Shown: positions 1-6,445 of the stretch, in pieces
Layout: the number at the start of each line of letters is the position of its first letter
How positions within the stretch are numbered: position 1 is the first letter of the stretch
Virus record (IMG/VR): IMGVR_UViG_2778261514_000007
Coordinates: 1 to 6,445 of that record
Strand: one strand, 5' to 3'
DNA length: 6,445 nt
From: a virus
Lineage: Duplodnaviria; Heunggongvirae; Uroviricota; Caudoviricetes
Notes under the pieces: generated by a model
The model's database searches: none
Told to the model about the DNA's origin: nothing
Seen by the model: the letters and a program-made list of their open reading frames with translations, nothing else
Position numbers and translations under genes: made by a program

Positions 1-64
1 TTTAACGTCCCCAGACCGCTAACGACGCATGTGCCATACGCCGTGTTACAACCAACCTTTCGTT

Positions 65-81
65 AACAACAGTCTGTTGTT
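65..81. promoter_or_regulatory. 17-bp perfect palindrome aacaacag-t-ctgttgtt (8-1-8), just downstream of the putative leftward promoter; candidate operator or 5' RNA hairpin
   Basis: Seen directly: positions 65-72 are the exact reverse complement of 74-81. Function is inferred from position only. Confidence 0.3.
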
Positions 82-91
82 TGTTCAGATA

Positions 92-120
92 ATGATGCTA
101 CTAAAAGTAGCAAAAATCAA
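92..120 (-). promoter_or_regulatory. PL/OL-like leftward promoter-operator module
   Basis: Minus-strand reading ttgatttttgctacttttagtagcatcat matches the module upstream of the cro-like gene (2485-2513, ttgcaatttgctattttaagtagcatcat) at 24 of 29 positions. It contains a -35-like TTGATT, a 17-nt spacer holding the dyad ctact-ttt-agtag (plus strand 98-110), and a weak -10-like CATCAT. An extra aagtag half-site lies at 128-133. Confidence 0.45.
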
Positions 121-350
121 CAACAAAAAGTAGAAGTGTGTATTTAATTTTTAGTTTTCTATATAACGTTATGAATTAAAAGGTTTTTCACAGATGGGGG
201 GATGTGGTGTAGTTACGTATAGAAAATATCGAGTGTCTTTTGTTTTGGTTTAATTATTAGGTTAATTAGATAGTAATAATTTTGGGGAAAATAGTGGGAA
301 CTATGGATACAACGGGTCAGGAACAGTGTTATTAAGCAGGCTACGAGTAT

Positions 351-372
351 AAAACCCGACCTGTTGGTCGGG
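351..372 (-). terminator. Rho-independent terminator downstream of the ParA-like gene
   Basis: 7-bp GC-rich stem cccgacc (355-361) / ggtcggg (366-372) with a 4-nt loop. On the minus strand the stem is followed by TTTT (complement of aaaa 351-354) then ATACT. It lies 37 nt past the minus-strand stop at 409-411. On the plus strand it is not followed by a T-tract, so it is unidirectional. Confidence 0.55.
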
Positions 373-408
373 CGAGAATTATGTTCGTTCTAAATCATGG
401 TTATTGTA

Positions 409-1494
409 TTACAGACACTTGACTACTGTTGAAACATCAGATTCTAGTGCTTCAATTTGTGCTCTATTAGCTTGGGTCGCCATACCATAGATAGTGTAAC
501 TCTTATGCTGCAGCCTACTTAAAGGGCATCCCTCATGGTTTATTATTGCTGCAAGAGTATTACCATCTTTGACATTTTGAACTCTCTCGAAAGTAGCCAC
601 ATTTGTGAACAGATGAGGATGTGTATTTAACAGGTCATCCGTGATTCTTTTGATCTCTTCTGCATGTGATTTGAATGCTTTTGCTGCATCACTTTCATTA
701 GTTCTTGAGCGGTTTTGTACGAAAAGGTGTAGTTCAGGTAGTTCGATAAGGTTTTGCTTTGCTTCTTTGTTGAAATCTAAGAACATTTCATCTTGTTCTG
801 ACTTGTCAATAGACACTCCATAAATAAGTTTAACAAGGTTTTTTATTCCGCGAATTGATGCAGCATCGGCAGTGCAAGGGATAATTATTCTATTTGCCGC
901 GACTACTCCCAATTCTGTGTAGCTGGCAAAACTTGGATTACAATCAATAAAAAATGTTTTTGCTCTGTCAGAAATGTTTTTATCGGCTTCAAAAGATGCT
1001 ATTAGATCTACCAGCAAAGATCGGCTTTTCTTCCATGCTTCTTTTACTGGGGATGAGCCAATGTGAGATATTAAGCGTGAACAGATATCAAGATCGACAT
1101 CACCAGGAAGAATATATAAGTTCTCTGGCATTTTTGCATTAACATCATGGGCTCGTACAAAGTAAGAAGATTCATTTCCTAAACGAGACAAAGGAGATTT
1201 GCTAAAACGCTCCTTGATATAACCTGCGATTGTAACATTTCTGTCTCGCAATTTATTTAGATTTTCTTCCCCGGTACCATTGCCACCAAGAATAATTTCT
1301 GAAACGTTTGATTGAGGGCATGAGTCAATAACCACAACATCTTGATCCGGATGAGATATAGCAAACTCAACGGCAAGATTATATGTAAGAAAAGTTTTTC
1401 CTACACCACCTTTGTTGTTCCATACTAAATATTTTGTATTGGTGGAAATCATATCTGCTACCCCATCTGTCGCTTCAGTACGTTCATTAATCAT
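409..1494 (-). CDS. ParA/MinD/Soj-family (deviant Walker A) ATPase, 361 aa, with a ~110-aa C-terminal extension of unknown function; no ParB partner
   Basis: ORF-track protein has NKGGVGKT at residues 27-34 (deviant Walker A with the signature lysine) and a ParA-like Walker B region FFIDCNPSFASYTELGVVAANRIIIPCTADAASIRG. ATG at 1494-1492 is preceded by AGGA with a 7-nt spacer on the minus strand. The gene is visibly AT-rich relative to the right half of the window (not computed). Confidence 0.85.
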   Translation of the reverse strand: MINERTEATDGVADMISTNTKYLVWNNKGGVGKTFLTYNLAVEFAISHPDQDVVVIDSCPQSNVSEIILGGNGTGEENLNKLRDRNVTIAGYIKERFSKSPLSRLGNESSYFVRAHDVNAKMPENLYILPGDVDLDICSRLISHIGSSPVKEAWKKSRSLLVDLIASFEADKNISDRAKTFFIDCNPSFASYTELGVVAANRIIIPCTADAASIRGIKNLVKLIYGVSIDKSEQDEMFLDFNKEAKQNLIELPELHLFVQNRSRTNESDAAKAFKSHAEEIKRITDDLLNTHPHLFTNVATFERVQNVKDGNTLAAIINHEGCPLSRLQHKSYTIYGMATQANRAQIEALESDVSTVVKCL

Positions 1495-1728
1495 TATCGT
1501 ATCCTGTTGTATAGAATTGTCTATTATTTATGTTTTATTTTGGTTTTTTTTGTGTTAGTAACGCACCCAAAGATAACATATGGTCTTTATCTTTTCTTAC
1601 TTAGGGTAACAGCTCAGTGTTAATCCATTTTTATGGACCAATGTGCCAAATAAAATTTGTATAAAGATTTTCTATCCTTATCTTTTATCATCTGTGCTCG
1701 TTTGCTTTAACGATTGCTAGATGCCTAA

Positions 1729-2469
1729 TTAAAGTCGATTATATTTAATCGACTCATGAATCAGTGCCTTACCCATAACATAAAGCTGATCTTGCGACTT
1801 CTCATCAATGTACCATTTCTCATAGGCGGGGTTATCCGAAAGAACAGCTAGTTTGTTGCCTTGCATTTGTAGACGTTTAACATGGAAAGTCTTACCGTAA
1901 ACGAAAGAGTAAACTCCATCAGTCTGGAAGTGGCGAACGGAAATGTCGACAAACAATCGATCCCCGGAAACAAGAGTTGGGGACATACTATCTCCATTTA
2001 CCGTCATAACTTTTATATCATTCTGAGAACGGTTTCCGAAAAGAGAACGGGCATGTTCAGTTGTGAACTCAATGGCGTAGAGCACATCAACATAGTCTGA
2101 AAGCATATAGGTCCCAGGTCCTGCGCTAACGCTAAGATCCAAAACTTCTATCCTGTATACATCGGGCTTTGTTGGATTGGGGATGCTTGCCATTTCCTTA
2201 CATTCCTCTCTATCTCCAACACCATATTCTAGATATGAAGCTGATACTCCAAGAGCCAACGCAAGTTTACTCATGACAGAGACACGTGGCTTCGCTGCGC
2301 CGATTGTGTATCGACGAGCCATTTCATATGTAACGCCCACAAGACTTTTGAGTTGAGTGACAGAGATTCCTTTGATTGTCATCAATTCGTTTAGTCTCTT
2401 GGCGAAATCTGGATACTTCTGTTCTTCTACCATAGGTAGAAGATTACTCACATCGCACGCGCTAGTCAT
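1729..2469 (-). CDS. cI-like prophage repressor: N-terminal HTH (XRE-type) plus C-terminal S24 LexA-like autopeptidase domain
   Basis: N-terminal HTH-like segment FAKRLNELMTIKGISVTQLKSLVGVTYEMARRY. C-terminal S24 hallmarks: Ser in NGDSMSP, Lys in HVKRL, and a possible Ala-Gly cleavage site in VSAGPG. The ORF-track start at 2490 is a TTG; the first ATG is at 2469-2467 with no Shine-Dalgarno, consistent with a leaderless PRM-type transcript as for lambda cI. Start is therefore 2469 or 2490. Confidence 0.85.
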   Translation of the reverse strand: MTSACDVSNLLPMVEEQKYPDFAKRLNELMTIKGISVTQLKSLVGVTYEMARRYTIGAAKPRVSVMSKLALALGVSASYLEYGVGDREECKEMASIPNPTKPDVYRIEVLDLSVSAGPGTYMLSDYVDVLYAIEFTTEHARSLFGNRSQNDIKVMTVNGDSMSPTLVSGDRLFVDISVRHFQTDGVYSFVYGKTFHVKRLQMQGNKLAVLSDNPAYEKWYIDEKSQDQLYVMGKALIHESIKYNRL

Positions 2470-2539
2470 TTCTATTTTAAGTAGTTGCAATTTGCTATTT
2501 TAAGTAGCATCATCCCTCTGAATTTCAGAGGAGAAAGGT
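2470..2539. promoter_or_regulatory. Divergent promoter/operator region (PRM-like leftward, PR-like rightward) between repressor and cro-like gene
   Basis: Exact 13-bp direct repeat ctattttaagtag at 2472-2484 and 2495-2507, each an imperfect dyad (ctaYt-NNN-agtag). -35-like TTGCAA at 2485-2490, 17-nt spacer, -10-like CATCAT at 2508-2513. On the minus strand a TAAAAT hexamer sits 4 nt upstream of the repressor ATG. A 17-bp palindrome (2515-2531) overlaps the cro Shine-Dalgarno. Confidence 0.55.
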
Positions 2540-2779
2540 ATGTCATCTCAAAACTACACAGAGAAAGCAGTAAAGGCTGCGGGAAAATCTTTATCTGAAG
2601 TAGCCCGTCGCTTTGGTTTTAAGTCCACTCAATCCGTCGCCAATTGGGTAATTAACAATCAAGTCCCGTCAGAACGGGTTTTACAACTTTGTGAGTTGGG
2701 AAACTGGTCCGTGACCCCTCATGAACTGCGTCCTGATATTTACCCCAATCCAAATGATGGATTACCTGAGTGCTATTAA
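2540..2779 (+). CDS. Cro-like small HTH regulator (YdaS/Cro family), 79 aa
   Basis: Strong RBS gaggag (2528-2533) 6 nt upstream of ATG 2540. The motif VPSERVLQLCELGNWSVTPHELRPDIY matches my recollection of the YdaS/Cro-family signature (..VP.ERV...E..TG..RHELRPD..). Divergent from the repressor, in the classic cro position. Confidence 0.8.
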   Translation: MSSQNYTEKAVKAAGKSLSEVARRFGFKSTQSVANWVINNQVPSERVLQLCELGNWSVTPHELRPDIYPNPNDGLPECY

Positions 2780-3416
2780 AAAGTTAGCGGTTCAACTGCG
2801 TAAACGTAACCACAGAAACGAGGAATTAACCGTGGGTAAAGAACCTGAATGGAAAGTTGATAAGCAACCAGCATGGCTGGTGGCAGCAATACGAAGAACG
2901 ATTGCTGATTTACCTCATGGCTATGAGGAAGCAGCGGAAATTCTTGGTTTGTATAAATCTGATGATATCACCCCAGCGAAAGATCAATTGCATAACAGAC
3001 TGCGTAGCGGTGGGGATCAAATTTTTCCACTTGAGTGGGCCATGGTTTTACAGGATGCCAGTGGTACCAGGCATGTAACGGATGCGATAGCGCGTCGTAG
3101 TAATGGGGTGTTTGTGCCGCTGGTGGACATTGATGACATTGACAATGGTGACATTAATCAGCGGCTGATGGAGTCAATAGAATGGATTGGCAAGCATTCC
3201 CAGTACTTACGCAAGGCAACTGCTGATGGAGTTATTGACCAGGCTGAGCGTGAGCAAATCGAAGAGAACAGCTACCAAGTAATGGCGAAGTGGCAGGAGC
3301 ATTTAACACTGTTATTTCGTGTTTTTTGTGCGCCGGAAAAGAGTAACGCCCGCGAGTGTGCAGCTCCGGGCGTCGTGGCGTCGATTGCTTCTGGTTGTGG
3401 AGAAACTAACGCATGA
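2754..3416 (+). CDS. CII-like / YdaT-family lysis-lysogeny regulator (family assignment tentative)
   Basis: Open frame 2721-3416, immediately after cro as in Rac-type immunity regions; family assigned by position and general resemblance only. Start is ambiguous: ATG 2721 (ORF track), ATG-ATG 2754/2757 (both overlap the cro 3' end, no clear SD), or GTG 2832, which has a good SD (gagga, 7-nt spacer). The stop TGA 3414-3416 overlaps the next ATG (ATGA). Confidence 0.6.
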   Translation: MMDYLSAIKKLAVQLRKRNHRNEELTVGKEPEWKVDKQPAWLVAAIRRTIADLPHGYEEAAEILGLYKSDDITPAKDQLHNRLRSGGDQIFPLEWAMVLQDASGTRHVTDAIARRSNGVFVPLVDIDDIDNGDINQRLMESIEWIGKHSQYLRKATADGVIDQAEREQIEENSYQVMAKWQEHLTLLFRVFCAPEKSNARECAAPGVVASIASGCGETNA

Positions 3417-4564
3417 ACAGTTTAACGGCAAATAACCGTTTGTCGCAACAGCTGGTGGTCAGCGTCGCTGAACACCTGTTGTTACGGCATGAATGCAGAT
3501 TACCAAATCACCTGGCTGTAAGTAACCACAGAGAACTTTACCTGACTGTGGGGGGCGAGTTGTGCAGGAACTTAACCGCTGGTTTCGTGACGGAAGAGGG
3601 CTTTATGTCCATGTTATTCGTTGGGAGCCAGAAACACAGCGCGTTATCTATCTTCGCAAAGACTACCCGCATGAGTGCTTTAGTCCTTTGTGGAAATTCA
3701 GGCGTGATTTTGTTGAGTGTGAAGGACCACCAGCATATTGATTCTGCAATTCCGGGACGTTACACTGTTCCGGCACCTTATAAAGCGGGTGCCGGGCGTG
3801 GAAACCCGAAATTCAATATAGAGCACAACCGCGCTCATGCGGTTTTTTCGTGTCATGAGCATCGTTACGCCCAAATTATGGTGGGGCGTGCAGGGCCAAC
3901 TTCGGTTGGGCCGGGTTCTATGTTGACCGGTATTTCCACCCCTGTACGTCTCACCACCTATATGGTCGTGGAAAGCCTTGGTGGTGAGTTCATTGAATTC
4001 AACATAGGGGCTGTCACCATGACTACTCTCCCAACCCAATCTCACCCTGAAATCACGATTATCAATGGTCGCGTTGTCACCACATCTCTTGCAGTAGCTA
4101 ATTACTTTACTAAACGGCATGAGCGGGTTTTAGATAGAATTAGAAACCTCGAATGTTCCGCTGAATTTACTGAACACAATTTTGTGTTAAGTGAATACAC
4201 CGACGCATCAGGCCGCAAACTCCCTTGTTACCAAATCACCCGCGACGGTTTTGCGTTTCTTGCTATGGGTTTCACGGGTAAACGTGCTGCCCGGTTCAAA
4301 GAGGCATACATCAATGCCTTTAACCAGATGGAAAAACTGCTTTCAAAGCCATCCACGCTGAGCGATGCCGCAGATAACGCCAGCGTGCTTTACTCCCACC
4401 TGTCGGTAATCCACAAGGTCTGGCTGCAGCAGCTTTATCCCATGTTGGCAAAAGCCGAATCCCCGCTGGCTGTAAGTCTGTATGACCGCATCAACGACGC
4501 GGCGCTACTGGCCAGTCTCATAAATTTGTCGCTGAACCCTTCAGAGGTAAGGGGGCGCAAATGA
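3413..4564 (+). CDS. Rha-family (pRha domain) phage regulatory protein with an unusual ~200-aa N-terminal region; possibly tandem pRha-like modules
   Basis: Residues ~203-300 (MTTLPTQSHPEITIINGRVVTTSLAVANYFTKRHERVLDRIRNL...ITRDGFAFLAMGF...) match the pRha domain as I recall it. The start at 3413 has an ATGA overlap with the upstream gene and a GGAG 10 nt upstream. The N-terminal part carries a weaker echo of the same motifs (VAEHLLLRHE vs VANYFTKRHE; VTEEGFMSMLFVG vs ITRDGFAFLAMGF). An internal ATG at 4019, preceded by GGGG, could start a canonical ~181-aa Rha. Confidence 0.65.
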   Translation: MNSLTANNRLSQQLVVSVAEHLLLRHECRLPNHLAVSNHRELYLTVGGELCRNLTAGFVTEEGFMSMLFVGSQKHSALSIFAKTTRMSALVLCGNSGVILLSVKDHQHIDSAIPGRYTVPAPYKAGAGRGNPKFNIEHNRAHAVFSCHEHRYAQIMVGRAGPTSVGPGSMLTGISTPVRLTTYMVVESLGGEFIEFNIGAVTMTTLPTQSHPEITIINGRVVTTSLAVANYFTKRHERVLDRIRNLECSAEFTEHNFVLSEYTDASGRKLPCYQITRDGFAFLAMGFTGKRAARFKEAYINAFNQMEKLLSKPSTLSDAADNASVLYSHLSVIHKVWLQQLYPMLAKAESPLAVSLYDRINDAALLASLINLSLNPSEVRGRK

Positions 4565-4785
4565 TCCGGAATATTTTCAAACGGTTTACCAATCAGACTT
4601 TCCGTTGTCCTCGTCCTGGTCAGTGGTACACCACGCCTGCAGGGCATGTTCTACGTGTTAGCCTGGTTGACCGTGAATGTCAGAAGGTGATTTGTGAACC
4701 GCTGGGCCGTAATTACCGCGTCAGTATGCCGCTTATAGCCTTTTGCTCCGGAAAAATGTTTAAGCGTCTGGGAGGTGTGGCGTGA
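4561..4785 (+). CDS. Small hypothetical protein, 74 aa, 4 Cys
   Basis: ATG overlaps the Rha stop (ATGA at 4561-4564); RBS aggtaaggggg upstream; stop overlaps the next gene's GTG. No family recognised. Confidence 0.55.
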   Translation: MIRNIFKRFTNQTFRCPRPGQWYTTPAGHVLRVSLVDRECQKVICEPLGRNYRVSMPLIAFCSGKMFKRLGGVA

Positions 4786-5081
4786 ACTGTTTTCAGTTTG
4801 TGTGCGGATGTGCTTTCGATAACCCGATTCAGCGCCTGATTATGTTGCGTGTTTTGATGTCGGGTTCTTCAGACGGTGAAGGCGAGAGAGTTATTGATCA
4901 TCAGGTGCTTGCTGATTTCTGCTGTTGTTCTAAGCAAGCGATATTCAGGGAAACCCTGGCACTGGAAAGAGCTGGTTATCTTCATATCCGAAAAATTGCA
5001 ACGCTTACTATTGATGCAAAAGCCAGACTACAACCTGCGCGTGGCTACACAATTCTCATGCTGCGGAAGGAGGTTGTATGA
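4782..5081 (+). CDS. Small hypothetical protein, 99 aa, GTG start, 6 Cys, possible HTH
   Basis: GTG at 4782 overlaps the upstream stop (GTGA); RBS gggagg about 8 nt upstream; stop overlaps the next ATG (ATGA at 5078-5081). The segment SKQAIFRETLALERAGYLHIRK is HTH-like. No family recognised. Confidence 0.55.
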   Translation: MNCFQFVCGCAFDNPIQRLIMLRVLMSGSSDGEGERVIDHQVLADFCCCSKQAIFRETLALERAGYLHIRKIATLTIDAKARLQPARGYTILMLRKEVV

Positions 5082-6061
5082 GCCGTTACGCCCCCACACC
5101 GGAAGTTATGGCTATTGGTCAAATTAATATTTCCGGCAATGTTACACCTGCGACCTGGTGGAAATATATTCGACTACCCAGTGGGCGTCCGGATGCGACG
5201 GCTATCGCTCTGCTTTCAGAGATCGTTTACTGGTACCGCCCGACAGAGGTCAGGGATGAGCACACCGGAGCGTTGCTGGGATATCGCAAGCGTTTTCAGG
5301 GCGACAAACTGCAAAGAAGCTACCAGGCGTTTGCTGAGCAGTTTGGTTTCGGGAAAAGGGAAACCGCAGATGCGCTGAAGCGTCTGCGCGATGCAGGGTT
5401 TATTACTCTGGATTTACGCACGGTGGAAATGCTCGATGGGGTGAAATGCAGCAATATTTTGTTTGTCGGGATCAACCCACAGGCAATTGCGGCCATCACC
5501 ACACCTTCTTCTGTTTCGCCAGAAAGTAACAGCAATAATGCAATCAGCGATACAGCTATTACGTTAAAACGGAACACCCCCCGACGTCATAACGGAACAG
5601 GGGATACGCCGAATGTTGATACAAATACAGAGATTACTACAGAGATTACAACGGAGACTAAAAACACTATTGATGCATCCGCTGACGCGTCTGCGCCAGC
5701 GCGTTCTGCCCGACAGGAATATTCACCGGAATTTGAACAGGCCTGGCAGGAATATCCCAAACGTGCTGGTGGCAATTCAAAATCAGCAGCCTTCAAAGCC
5801 TGGAAAGCCCGTTTGAACGAGGGGGTAAACCCCGAAACCATGCTGGAAGGTGTGAAACGCTACGCGGGCTGGGTATCTGCGATGGGCAATAGCGGCACAC
5901 AATTTGTGAAACAGGCTGTCACGTTCTTTGGTCCGGATCGTCATTTCGAAGAATCCTGGGAAGTTCCTGCGGTATCTGCAGCCAGACGCGAGGACCCGTA
6001 CTTCAAAGCCAGTTACGACAACGTGGACTACAGCCAGATCCCGACAGGATTCAGGGGGTGA
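5078..6061 (+). CDS. Phage replication initiation protein (lambda O-like / replisome organiser), 327 aa
   Basis: Strong RBS ggaaggagg (5066-5074). N-terminal HTH-like domain (FGFGKRETADALKRLRDAGFITL), a central low-complexity Thr/Glu/Ile linker, and a C-terminal segment EFEQAWQEYPKRAGG...AAFKAWKARL of the kind seen at the C-terminus of phage replication proteins (recalled pattern). Position after the regulators fits. Confidence 0.7.
   Translation: MSRYAPTPEVMAIGQINISGNVTPATWWKYIRLPSGRPDATAIALLSEIVYWYRPTEVRDEHTGALLGYRKRFQGDKLQRSYQAFAEQFGFGKRETADALKRLRDAGFITLDLRTVEMLDGVKCSNILFVGINPQAIAAITTPSSVSPESNSNNAISDTAITLKRNTPRRHNGTGDTPNVDTNTEITTEITTETKNTIDASADASAPARSARQEYSPEFEQAWQEYPKRAGGNSKSAAFKAWKARLNEGVNPETMLEGVKRYAGWVSAMGNSGTQFVKQAVTFFGPDRHFEESWEVPAVSAARREDPYFKASYDNVDYSQIPTGFRG
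5627..5662. repeat. Short tandem repeat (12-bp unit acagagattacW x2 plus a degenerate third copy) inside the replication gene linker
   Basis: acagagattact (5627-5638) and acagagattaca (5639-5650), followed by acggagactaaa. Encodes TEITTEITTET. Followed by an A/T-rich stretch. Confidence 0.5.
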
Positions 6062-6063
6062 TC

Positions 6064-6445
6064 ATGAGTCTGATGAACGATGTACAGAAATTCATTGAAG
6101 CCCATCCGGGGTGTACTTCAGGTGACATTGCGGATGCTTTTGCTGGTTACTCACGACAGTGCGTTCTGCAGTCAGCAAGCAAGTTACGTCAGAGTGGCCG
6201 TGTGGCTCACTGTTGTGAAGGGAAAACACGCAGACATTTCCCACACCAGGCTGAGATATCGCAGGAGGAGAAACTGCAACCTGTTCTTGAAACCATACCT
6301 GTGCGCAATTTCTATGTCGGCACTAACGATCCCCGGGTGATTTTGTGCCTGACCCGCCAGGCGGAAGAACTGGAGTCCAGGGGCTTATACCGTCGTGCTG
6401 CAACCGTGTGGATGGCGGCATTCCGTGAAAGCCACTCCCAGCCAG
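6064..6445 (+). CDS. Hypothetical protein, 3'-truncated at window edge (at least 127 codons); N-terminal winged-helix-like segment, C-terminal PerC/ANR-like motif (tentative)
   Basis: ATG 6064 lies 2 nt after the replication gene stop, with GGGGG upstream; the frame is open to the end of the window. It is absent from the ORF track only because no stop is reached. The motif LESRGLYRRAATVWM resembles my recollection of PerC-family proteins. Confidence 0.55.
   Translation, partial: MSLMNDVQKFIEAHPGCTSGDIADAFAGYSRQCVLQSASKLRQSGRVAHCCEGKTRRHFPHQAEISQEEKLQPVLETIPVRNFYVGTNDPRVILCLTRQAEELESRGLYRRAATVWMAAFRESHSQP

Follow-up and report, generated by a model that had tools for sequence, protein, structure and literature searches.

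The window analysed here is the whole stretch of 6,445 nucleotides (nt) at positions 1 to 6,445 of the IMG/VR record IMGVR_UViG_2778261514_000007, and it covers the immunity and early-right region of an Escherichia coli lambdoid prophage. Positions 1700-3500 were a 99.9% match to the STEC17-183 chromosome, the same annotation is found in E. coli chromosomes, and a search of 5426 complete E. coli genomes matched the locus in 2006 of them. The window holds, in this order, a ParA-like gene, a CI-like repressor, a gene for a helix-turn-helix (HTH) protein of 79 amino acids (aa), ymfL, a Rha-type regulator region, and replication genes, while the helicase loader, DnaB, and the Q antiterminator come next in the matching chromosome according to RefSeq. 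The analysis is centred on the 79-aa HTH gene (gene 1) and ymfL (gene 2), together with two conserved inverted repeats flanking ymfL, at which the YmfL protein would probably do the job of a phage CII regulator. The features concerned are given below.

409-1494, minus strand: ParA-like gene, the leftmost feature listed.
1729..2433, minus strand: CI-like prophage repressor that combines an HTH with a LexA-type S24 autocleavage domain; it diverges from cro, and its start is given as in RefSeq.
2472-2484 and 2495-2507, no strand assigned: candidate right operator (OR), two copies of the 13-mer CTATTTTAAGTAG between cI and cro.
2540..2779, plus strand: cro-like gene for a 79-aa HTH protein of the YdaS/Cro family (PF15943, phrog_35, 3bd1).
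2781..2786, minus strand: predicted -10 element TAACTT of promoter P1, just after the cro stop, with a putative start near 2774.
2807..2838, no strand assigned: candidate CII box 1, TAACCACAG-N14-CCGTGGGTA, with the core CCACAG at 2810-2815 and CCGTGG at 2830-2835.
2832..3416, plus strand: ymfL-type cII-like gene, 194 aa, GTG start (NF041471, phrog_101, PF06892, AlphaFold2/Foldseek).
3497..3502, minus strand: predicted -10 element TAATCT of promoter P2, with a putative start near 3490.
3523..3554, no strand assigned: candidate CII box 2, TAACCACAG-N14-CTGTGGGGG, with the core CCACAG-N14-CTGTGG at 3526-3551.

Gene 1 is preceded by GGAG 8 nt 5' of its ATG and was assigned to the Pfam family PF15943, which bears the Pfam name YdaS_toxin, with 43.2 bits at a cut-off of 30 (residues 9-70 on positions 3-63 of the 65 in the profile), and to phrog_35 with 71.7 bits. 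The best match among solved structures was the Cro protein of the Xylella prophage Xfaso1 (PDB 3bd1, E=2.8e-5), in an alignment running through ELRPD. The HELRPD motif of gene 1 is found at aa 61-66 (nt 2720-2737), on the C-terminal side of the HTH, and aligns with ELRPD in K-12 YdaS, DLRPD in YmfT, and ELRPD in Xfaso1 Cro, with 35 and 33% identity of the whole protein to K-12 YdaS and e14 YmfT, respectively. The initial annotation had attributed this gene to the YdaS/Cro family from its HELRPD motif, and the Pfam score, the match to Xfaso1 Cro, and the identity to YdaS all bear this out.

The position of gene 1 points in the same direction, as it is the first gene of a rightward operon and diverges from the immunity repressor, with the shared 13-mers between them. 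The two genes are separated by 106 bp, and the CI-like repressor scored 60 bits against Pfam Peptidase_S24, 25 bits against HTH_3, and 169 bits against phrog_4. The two copies of CTATTTTAAGTAG are identical to each other, are imperfect palindromes, and lie 23 bp apart. On homology and gene context, gene 1 is a Cro-type repressor.

Gene 2 was assigned to the NCBIfam family YmfL (NF041471) with 182.1 bits at an equivalog cut-off of 90, and to phrog_101, which is described as a CII-like transcriptional activator, with 211.7 bits. With family scores of this kind, genes 1 and 2 are both genuine genes and no chance reading frames. It is 56% identical to YmfL of the K-12 e14 prophage (b1147) over the full length (194 aligned columns, E=1e-78). 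The sole Pfam match above the curated cut-off was PF06892, the phage 186 CII family of transcription activators (30.2 bits, cut-off 26, residues 67-153), and PF06892 was precomputed on nearly all of the 120 homologues listed. The AlphaFold2 model, for which 36 homologues were used, had a mean predicted local distance difference test (pLDDT) score of 77.6; in it, an N-terminal helical HTH domain is followed by a long hairpin of helices and then by a disordered tail. This tail of about 25 aa (residues 170-194) had a pLDDT below 50 and is predicted to be disordered, and most positions of its ARECAAPG segment are conserved to 90% or more.

When the model of gene 2 was searched against the PDB with Foldseek, the top seven matches were all chains of 186 CII (6vpe, 6vli, 6vmh) with probabilities of 0.94-1.0. 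The profile of a broader alignment (A4), built from an exhaustive profile search with 233 representatives as its yield, likewise ranked 186 CII first among PDB sequences (E=5.6e-6), and hhalign of A4 against 186 CII gave 92% over 105 columns, the HTH included. The 186 cII- mutation V36E/Q37S falls in the HTH columns of this alignment (PMC7708051). By sequence and predicted fold, gene 2 is a member of the YmfL family and a distant homologue of phage 186 CII. The copy in the window also has an insertion of eight residues, YKSDDITP (residues 41-48, nt 2952-2975), between two HTH helices, which is absent from most family members and coincides with a short beta bridge in the model; the boxes are the same in both variants.

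The initial annotation had placed gene 2 in the YdaT/CII position. Its position is indeed that of cII, given the order of divergent S24 repressor, cro, gene 2, and regulatory and replication genes, but a relationship to YdaT was found neither by hidden Markov models (HMMs) nor by BLASTP nor by fold. No match to the YdaT family PF06254 was obtained even at E<=10, the BLASTP comparison with K-12 YdaT gave E=5.1, the hhalign probability was 0.6%, and the POU-like YdaT structures 3c4r and 8bt1 were not among the Foldseek matches listed. The YdaT operator TTGATT-N6-AATCAA was not present between genes 1 and 2, and in the window it gave only two matches with two mismatches each (934 and 1735), which is at chance level. 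A protein of the lambda CII type was likewise rejected, with no lambda CII family among the Pfam matches and no TTGC-N6-TTGC anywhere in the window.

The reading frame of gene 2 is open from 2721 to 3416 on the plus strand and offers in-frame starts at ATG 2721, ATG 2754/2757, and GTG 2832. All three starts between which the initial annotation had not decided (2721, 2754, and 2832) are thus present, while the choice among them is no longer open. GTG 2832 is the RefSeq start in the 99.9% identical locus, and a GAGGA Shine-Dalgarno sequence (2820-2824) lies 7 nt 5' of it. K-12 ymfL and the CII gene of the Shiga toxin (Stx) phage WGPS2 likewise begin with GTG followed by the residues GK, and 36 of 36 aligned homologues begin with MG(N/K) or MD. 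Across 51 distinct loci, which come from many genera of enterobacteria, the start lies 10-11 codons before an invariant QP-W and is a GTG in 49, and several of these loci have an in-frame stop 1-2 codons upstream of the GTG. Longer N-termini from ATG 2721 or ATG 2754 were rejected because of the GTG in 49 of 51 loci, the upstream in-frame stops, and the N-termini of the homologues, and this comparison establishes GTG 2832 as the start of gene 2. The only loci with an ATG-start ymfL are L041 and L049, neither of which has box 1 at the start codon; in L049, a canonical box 1 followed by GTG occurs 456 nt further upstream.

The two inverted repeats were obtained by comparing the 51 loci, while a generic inverted-repeat search in 2560-3100 alone did not reveal them. 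Both boxes read CCACAG-N14-CYGTGG, with half-sites 20 bp apart from centre to centre. Box 1 spans the start of ymfL and encloses both the Shine-Dalgarno sequence GAGGA and the GTG, its right end CCGTGGGTA being an imperfect reverse complement of its left end TAACCACAG, and box 2 sits 109 nt after the ymfL stop. The 30 nt 5' of the GTG are nearly invariant across the 51 loci, with TAACCACAG at -25 to -17, the Shine-Dalgarno G, and AACC-GTG-GGT-A, despite very diverse upstream cro genes with a mean column identity of 25%. The conservation of the GTG start would be explained by its place in the right half-site of box 1, as an ATG would alter CCGTGG.

The box pattern had two exact matches in the window where 0.04 were expected, and in about 390 kb of related loci plus the whole mEp460 genome, nearly all exact N14 matches were located at the two box positions, the exceptions being L040, with a 13-nt spacer, and L049. 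About 20 loci carried box 2, located +109 to +133 nt past the stop codon, with two quite different spacer sequences that always had the N14 length. In a scan of viral contigs with the box 2 pattern, 105 of the 117 assessable matches adjoined a ymfL homologue, and 102 lay 60-200 nt past its end.

On the minus strand, a TAnnnT hexamer occurred exactly 23 nt from the left half-site in 33 of 40 distinct flanks of box 1 and in 16 of 16 distinct flanks of box 2, compared to a background at other offsets of about 1.3/40 and 0.3/16, respectively. The six bases abutting the left half-site read TTACnn and are 17 nt from the -10 hexamer. Rightward promoters at the boxes were rejected, as no comparable -10 pattern appeared on the right side. 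Relative to the putative starts of P1 and P2, the centres of the half-sites would fall near -38.5 and -58.5. Between 3490 and the ymfL start at 2832, the minus strand has no predicted intrinsic terminator.

A similar arrangement is seen in phage 186, for which the geometry was taken from the GenBank annotation and from the sequence itself. In the annotated CII site, ATGTTTG-N13-CAAACAT, the half-site centres are likewise 20 bp apart, and the cII ATG falls inside the site. The annotation has this site within the leftward pE feature (23400-23462), and a TAAAGT is found at a distance of 21 nt from the 7-mer. If 23400 is the start of the transcript, the 186 half-sites are at -38 and -58. The published half-site distance of 186 CII is reportedly also 20 bp centre to centre. 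In K-12, genomic systematic evolution of ligands by exponential enrichment (SELEX) with the RpoD holoenzyme placed an internal promoter between ymfL and ymfM (PMC3946193), which is a loose hint from outside this analysis.

These observations make it probable that the region forms the right half of an immunity switch of the lambdoid type, in which a Cro protein is accompanied by YmfL doing the job of CII at two boxes with leftward promoters. On homology and by analogy with 186, the CII job is the most likely one for YmfL. The Cro-type gene 1 would be transcribed rightward, divergent from the CI-like repressor, across the shared pair of 13-bp operators. YmfL would be made from the early rightward transcript, would then bind both CCACAG-N14-CYGTGG boxes, and would thereby switch on the two leftward promoters P1 and P2. 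The P1 RNA, starting near 2774, would run antisense through cro and on into cI and would provide the establishment route, while the P2 RNA, starting near 3490, would be antisense to ymfL and convergent with early rightward transcription to the downstream genes. The disordered and partly conserved C-terminal tail of YmfL may serve as a proteolysis signal, as in 186 CII. The sequence comparisons show what the genes are, where ymfL starts, its homology to 186 CII, the presence and conservation of the two boxes with their exclusive link to ymfL, and the -10 hexamers at a fixed distance. We infer that YmfL is the protein binding the boxes, that it activates rather than represses, that the transcripts start where predicted, and that the tail is a degron.

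In a fuller version, to which we would give an even chance, YmfL would be the as yet uncharacterised CII in a very large class of lambdoid prophages of enterobacteria, e14 among them. It would act with the unusual binding geometry of 186 CII at two boxes bracketing ymfL, one of them pRE-like for cI and the other producing antisense shut-off of ymfL and of DUF4222/isrK-C4/Rha, and the GTG would be kept as part of the operator.

Several observations weigh against this interpretation. The narrow YmfL alignment (A1) had no match among PDB sequences and an insignificant hhalign result against 186 CII. The exact pattern of box 2 was present in only about 40% of the loci, the predicted -35 elements (TTACnn) are poor, and the link between protein and boxes consists of their co-occurrence and the analogy with 186. 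On the 186 side, the pE start was taken from the range of a GenBank feature, and a second -10-like hexamer, TACAAT, is found nearer to the 186 site. In mEp460, no further box was found near int or Q, and the YmfL regulon would therefore differ from the lambda CII regulon. Literature searches returned no study of DNA binding by YmfL.

The boxes could also act negatively, with YmfL still a member of the 186 CII family that forms a roadblock or loops the 700 bp between them, possibly as a tetramer. Autoregulation and repression of the downstream antirepressor module would then be expected, with rightward transcription blocked. Such a role would suit boxes that bracket ymfL, the first overlapping its ribosome-binding region and the second immediately preceding the DUF4222 gene and the isrK/C4/Rha module. 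A tetramer would agree with the four chains (6vli_A-D) listed for the 186 CII entry 6vli in the Foldseek output and with PMC9986795, in which YdaT is reported as a tetramer. A roadblock, however, has no need of the one-sided TAnnnT at a fixed distance, 17 bp from TTAC, which has the look of a promoter, and the nearest characterised homologue is an activator (PMC7708051), so that we consider negative action unlikely. Still less probable is an action of the boxes in RNA, by which box 1 would form a hairpin hiding the GUG and Shine-Dalgarno sequence of ymfL and box 2 would be a processing site. CCAC-GUGG pairing with the Shine-Dalgarno sequence in the loop did appear in most minimum-free-energy folds, but the folding energies were no better than those of shuffled controls (z about -0.3). 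The A-C mismatch in box 1 (CCACAG vs CCGTGG) is uncompensated in most loci, and variation there is never compensated; the half-sites are invariant without covariation, and the minus-strand -10 hexamers would have no role in such a model. We regard it as distinctly improbable.

The idea that the pair is a genuine type II toxin-antitoxin (TA) system, in which gene 2 would encode the toxin and the 79-aa HTH protein would be its antitoxin, draws on the family name YdaS_toxin in Pfam and on PMC5700377 and PMC5700373, where YdaS/YdaT of Rac are reported as toxic when de-repressed. Against it, gene 2 lies outside the YdaT family and has an HTH and the fold of 186 CII, and neither protein matched PADLOC or any toxin or defence model. 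The proteins encoded upstream of YmfL homologues with 45-99% identity number 37 distinct ones and belong to several Cro types (in overlapping counts, 24 YdaS, 16 P22_Cro, 10 HTH_3, and 2 lambda Cro), and because YmfL combines with such different Cro types, there is no cognate pairing. Over-expression of e14 ymfL caused no filamentation and left cell length normal (bioRxiv 10.1101/2020.11.19.390815). For YdaS/YdaT themselves, experiments showed Cro/CII analogues rather than a TA pair, with a non-toxic YdaT in CP-933P (PMC8630535), and the TA label has been argued against (PMC5917428).

For gene 2 as a toxin we see hardly any probability left. The pair is best described as an ordinary module of a Cro and a CII-type protein for the lysis-lysogeny decision, with a TA function very unlikely. 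The initial annotation had favoured Cro/CII switch regulators over a TA pair, and it is sustained in this by homology, gene context, the lack of PADLOC matches, and the varied Cro partners. The question of Cro/CII or TA was already settled in the literature for YdaS/YdaT, and here homology and context make the pair an ordinary one.

Among known systems, 186 CII is the one that YmfL resembles in structure. Both share the N-terminal HTH with the recognition-helix motif L-x-N-(R/K)-L, and both genes are located on the early lytic transcript directly after the cro-equivalent gene. In silico, the candidate YmfL operator has the same 20-bp half-site distance, the gene's own start codon inside it, and a leftward promoter beside it. 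The C-terminal tail of YmfL is predicted to be disordered, and in 186 CII the loss of the last 24 residues (truncation to 145) stabilises the protein against FtsH and RseP (PMC7708051). The differences include an identity of only about 13-17%, a length of 183-194 aa in YmfL compared to 169 in 186 CII, and the half-site, which is CCACAG in the YmfL boxes and ATGTTTG in 186. YmfL occurs in lambdoid phages with an S24-cleavable CI and Cro, whereas 186 is P2-like with the 186 CI and Apl; moreover, there are two YmfL boxes instead of the single pE site, and the window copy has the inter-helix insertion of eight residues. In both 186 (fil, L005 2453-2680) and e14 (ymfM, L003 3323-3661), the gene that directly follows the CII-type one carries the annotation of a cell-division inhibitor.

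A similar arrangement is that of e14, where ymfL also has a GTG start with a GAGG Shine-Dalgarno sequence, follows the Cro-like ymfT, and lies beside the divergent S24 repressor ymfK, with box 2 past its stop. In e14, however, box 1 is degenerate (TCGTGG), YmfT shares only 33% identity with gene 1, and ymfM with a decayed replication gene takes the place of the isrK/C4/Rha module. With YdaS/YdaT of Rac and CP-933P, the locus shares the Pfam family of gene 1, the gene positions, and the proposed Cro and CII roles. YdaT binds an inverted repeat between ydaS and ydaT and activates a leftward PRE-like promoter (PMC8630535, PMC9986795), but it is POU-like with the operator TTGATT-N6-AATCAA (PMC9986795), and gene 2 is related to it in neither sequence nor fold. 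The likeness to lambda Cro and CII lies in the circuit logic and gene order. P1 would correspond to pRE, being antisense to cro and sense to cI, and also to pE of 186, while P2 would resemble paQ, or the pO/oop position, as an antisense promoter. Gene 2, on the other hand, has no homology to lambda CII.

On the left side of the switch, the start of the CI-like repressor is ambiguous between ATG 2433 (RefSeq), an in-frame ATG 2469, and TTG 2490, none of them with a clear Shine-Dalgarno sequence. A promoter-like TTAAAA-18-TAAAAT on the minus strand, from 2503 to 2474, overlaps both CTATTTTAAGTAG operators, and its predicted transcription start would be at about 2467-2469. A repressor message from ATG 2469 would be leaderless because of this start position. 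The lambda cI message from pRM is leaderless.

Two further 13-mers, CTACTAAAAGTAG (98-110) and CAACAAAAAGTAG (121-133), form a candidate left operator (OL); like the two copies of CTATTTTAAGTAG in the cI-cro gap, they are spaced 23 bp apart. Because this candidate lies at 98-133, the immunity region includes the ParA-like ATPase gene, which is flanked by OL and cI and takes the position that rexAB has in lambda. PADLOC gave a single weak match of the ParA-like ATPase to Drt5 (E=0.007).

Downstream of ymfL, full-length matches to two RNAs were found on the plus strand: the Hfq-binding RNA isrK at 3773-3849 (Rfam, 61.6 bits, gathering score 50) and the C4 antisense RNA at 3874-3961 (82.4 bits, gathering score 45). 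A c4-a1b1 target at 3760-3812 was matched below the Rfam threshold. All three lie inside an open reading frame (ORF) of 383 aa (3413-4564, plus strand), and the match of this ORF to the Pfam 'Ash protein family' (nt 3761-4051) coincides with the isrK/C4 RNA genes. Because of this coincidence, the RefSeq 'ash family protein' of the near-identical genome, and perhaps the Pfam family as well, may be a translated RNA locus. The isrK/C4 region looks like an antirepressor control module of the P1 immI or Gifsy-1 isrK type.

The 383-aa ORF is probably composite. Its first approximately 100 aa are 33% identical to e14 YmfM (E=5e-9), the corresponding ORF has just 61-67 aa in several other loci, and a Rha domain is encoded 3' of an internal Met codon at about nt 4019, the product from there corresponding to positions 144-324 of phrog_821. 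In another frame, a GTG-start ORF of 59 aa (3562-3741, plus strand) was assigned to DUF4222 (PF13973, 51 bits, cut-off 27) and over its full length to phrog_1343. In K-12 e14, a closely similar 59-aa ORF (L003 3502-3681) without annotation of its own overlaps ymfM, as annotated, in the 3' half of that gene, and this overlapping DUF4222 gene might be involved in the cell-division inhibition ascribed to ymfM.

Further to the right, the plus-strand ORFs 4782-5081 and 5078-6061 overlap via ATGA, and both match replication-initiation PHROGs, namely phrog_4617 (its N-terminal half only) and phrog_270. Related phages have one replication protein of 273 aa where the window has these two ORFs (4782-6061), which may represent a split or mosaic replication gene.

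The YmfL family of y-genes is widespread, with a copy in e14 of K-12, and its annotation goes no further than a putative regulatory protein. With this analysis, the family gains a start codon, a structural relative in 186 CII, and two candidate operators, each with a candidate promoter. If the proposed circuit is true, a CII mechanism of the 186 type would be used by lambdoid phages.

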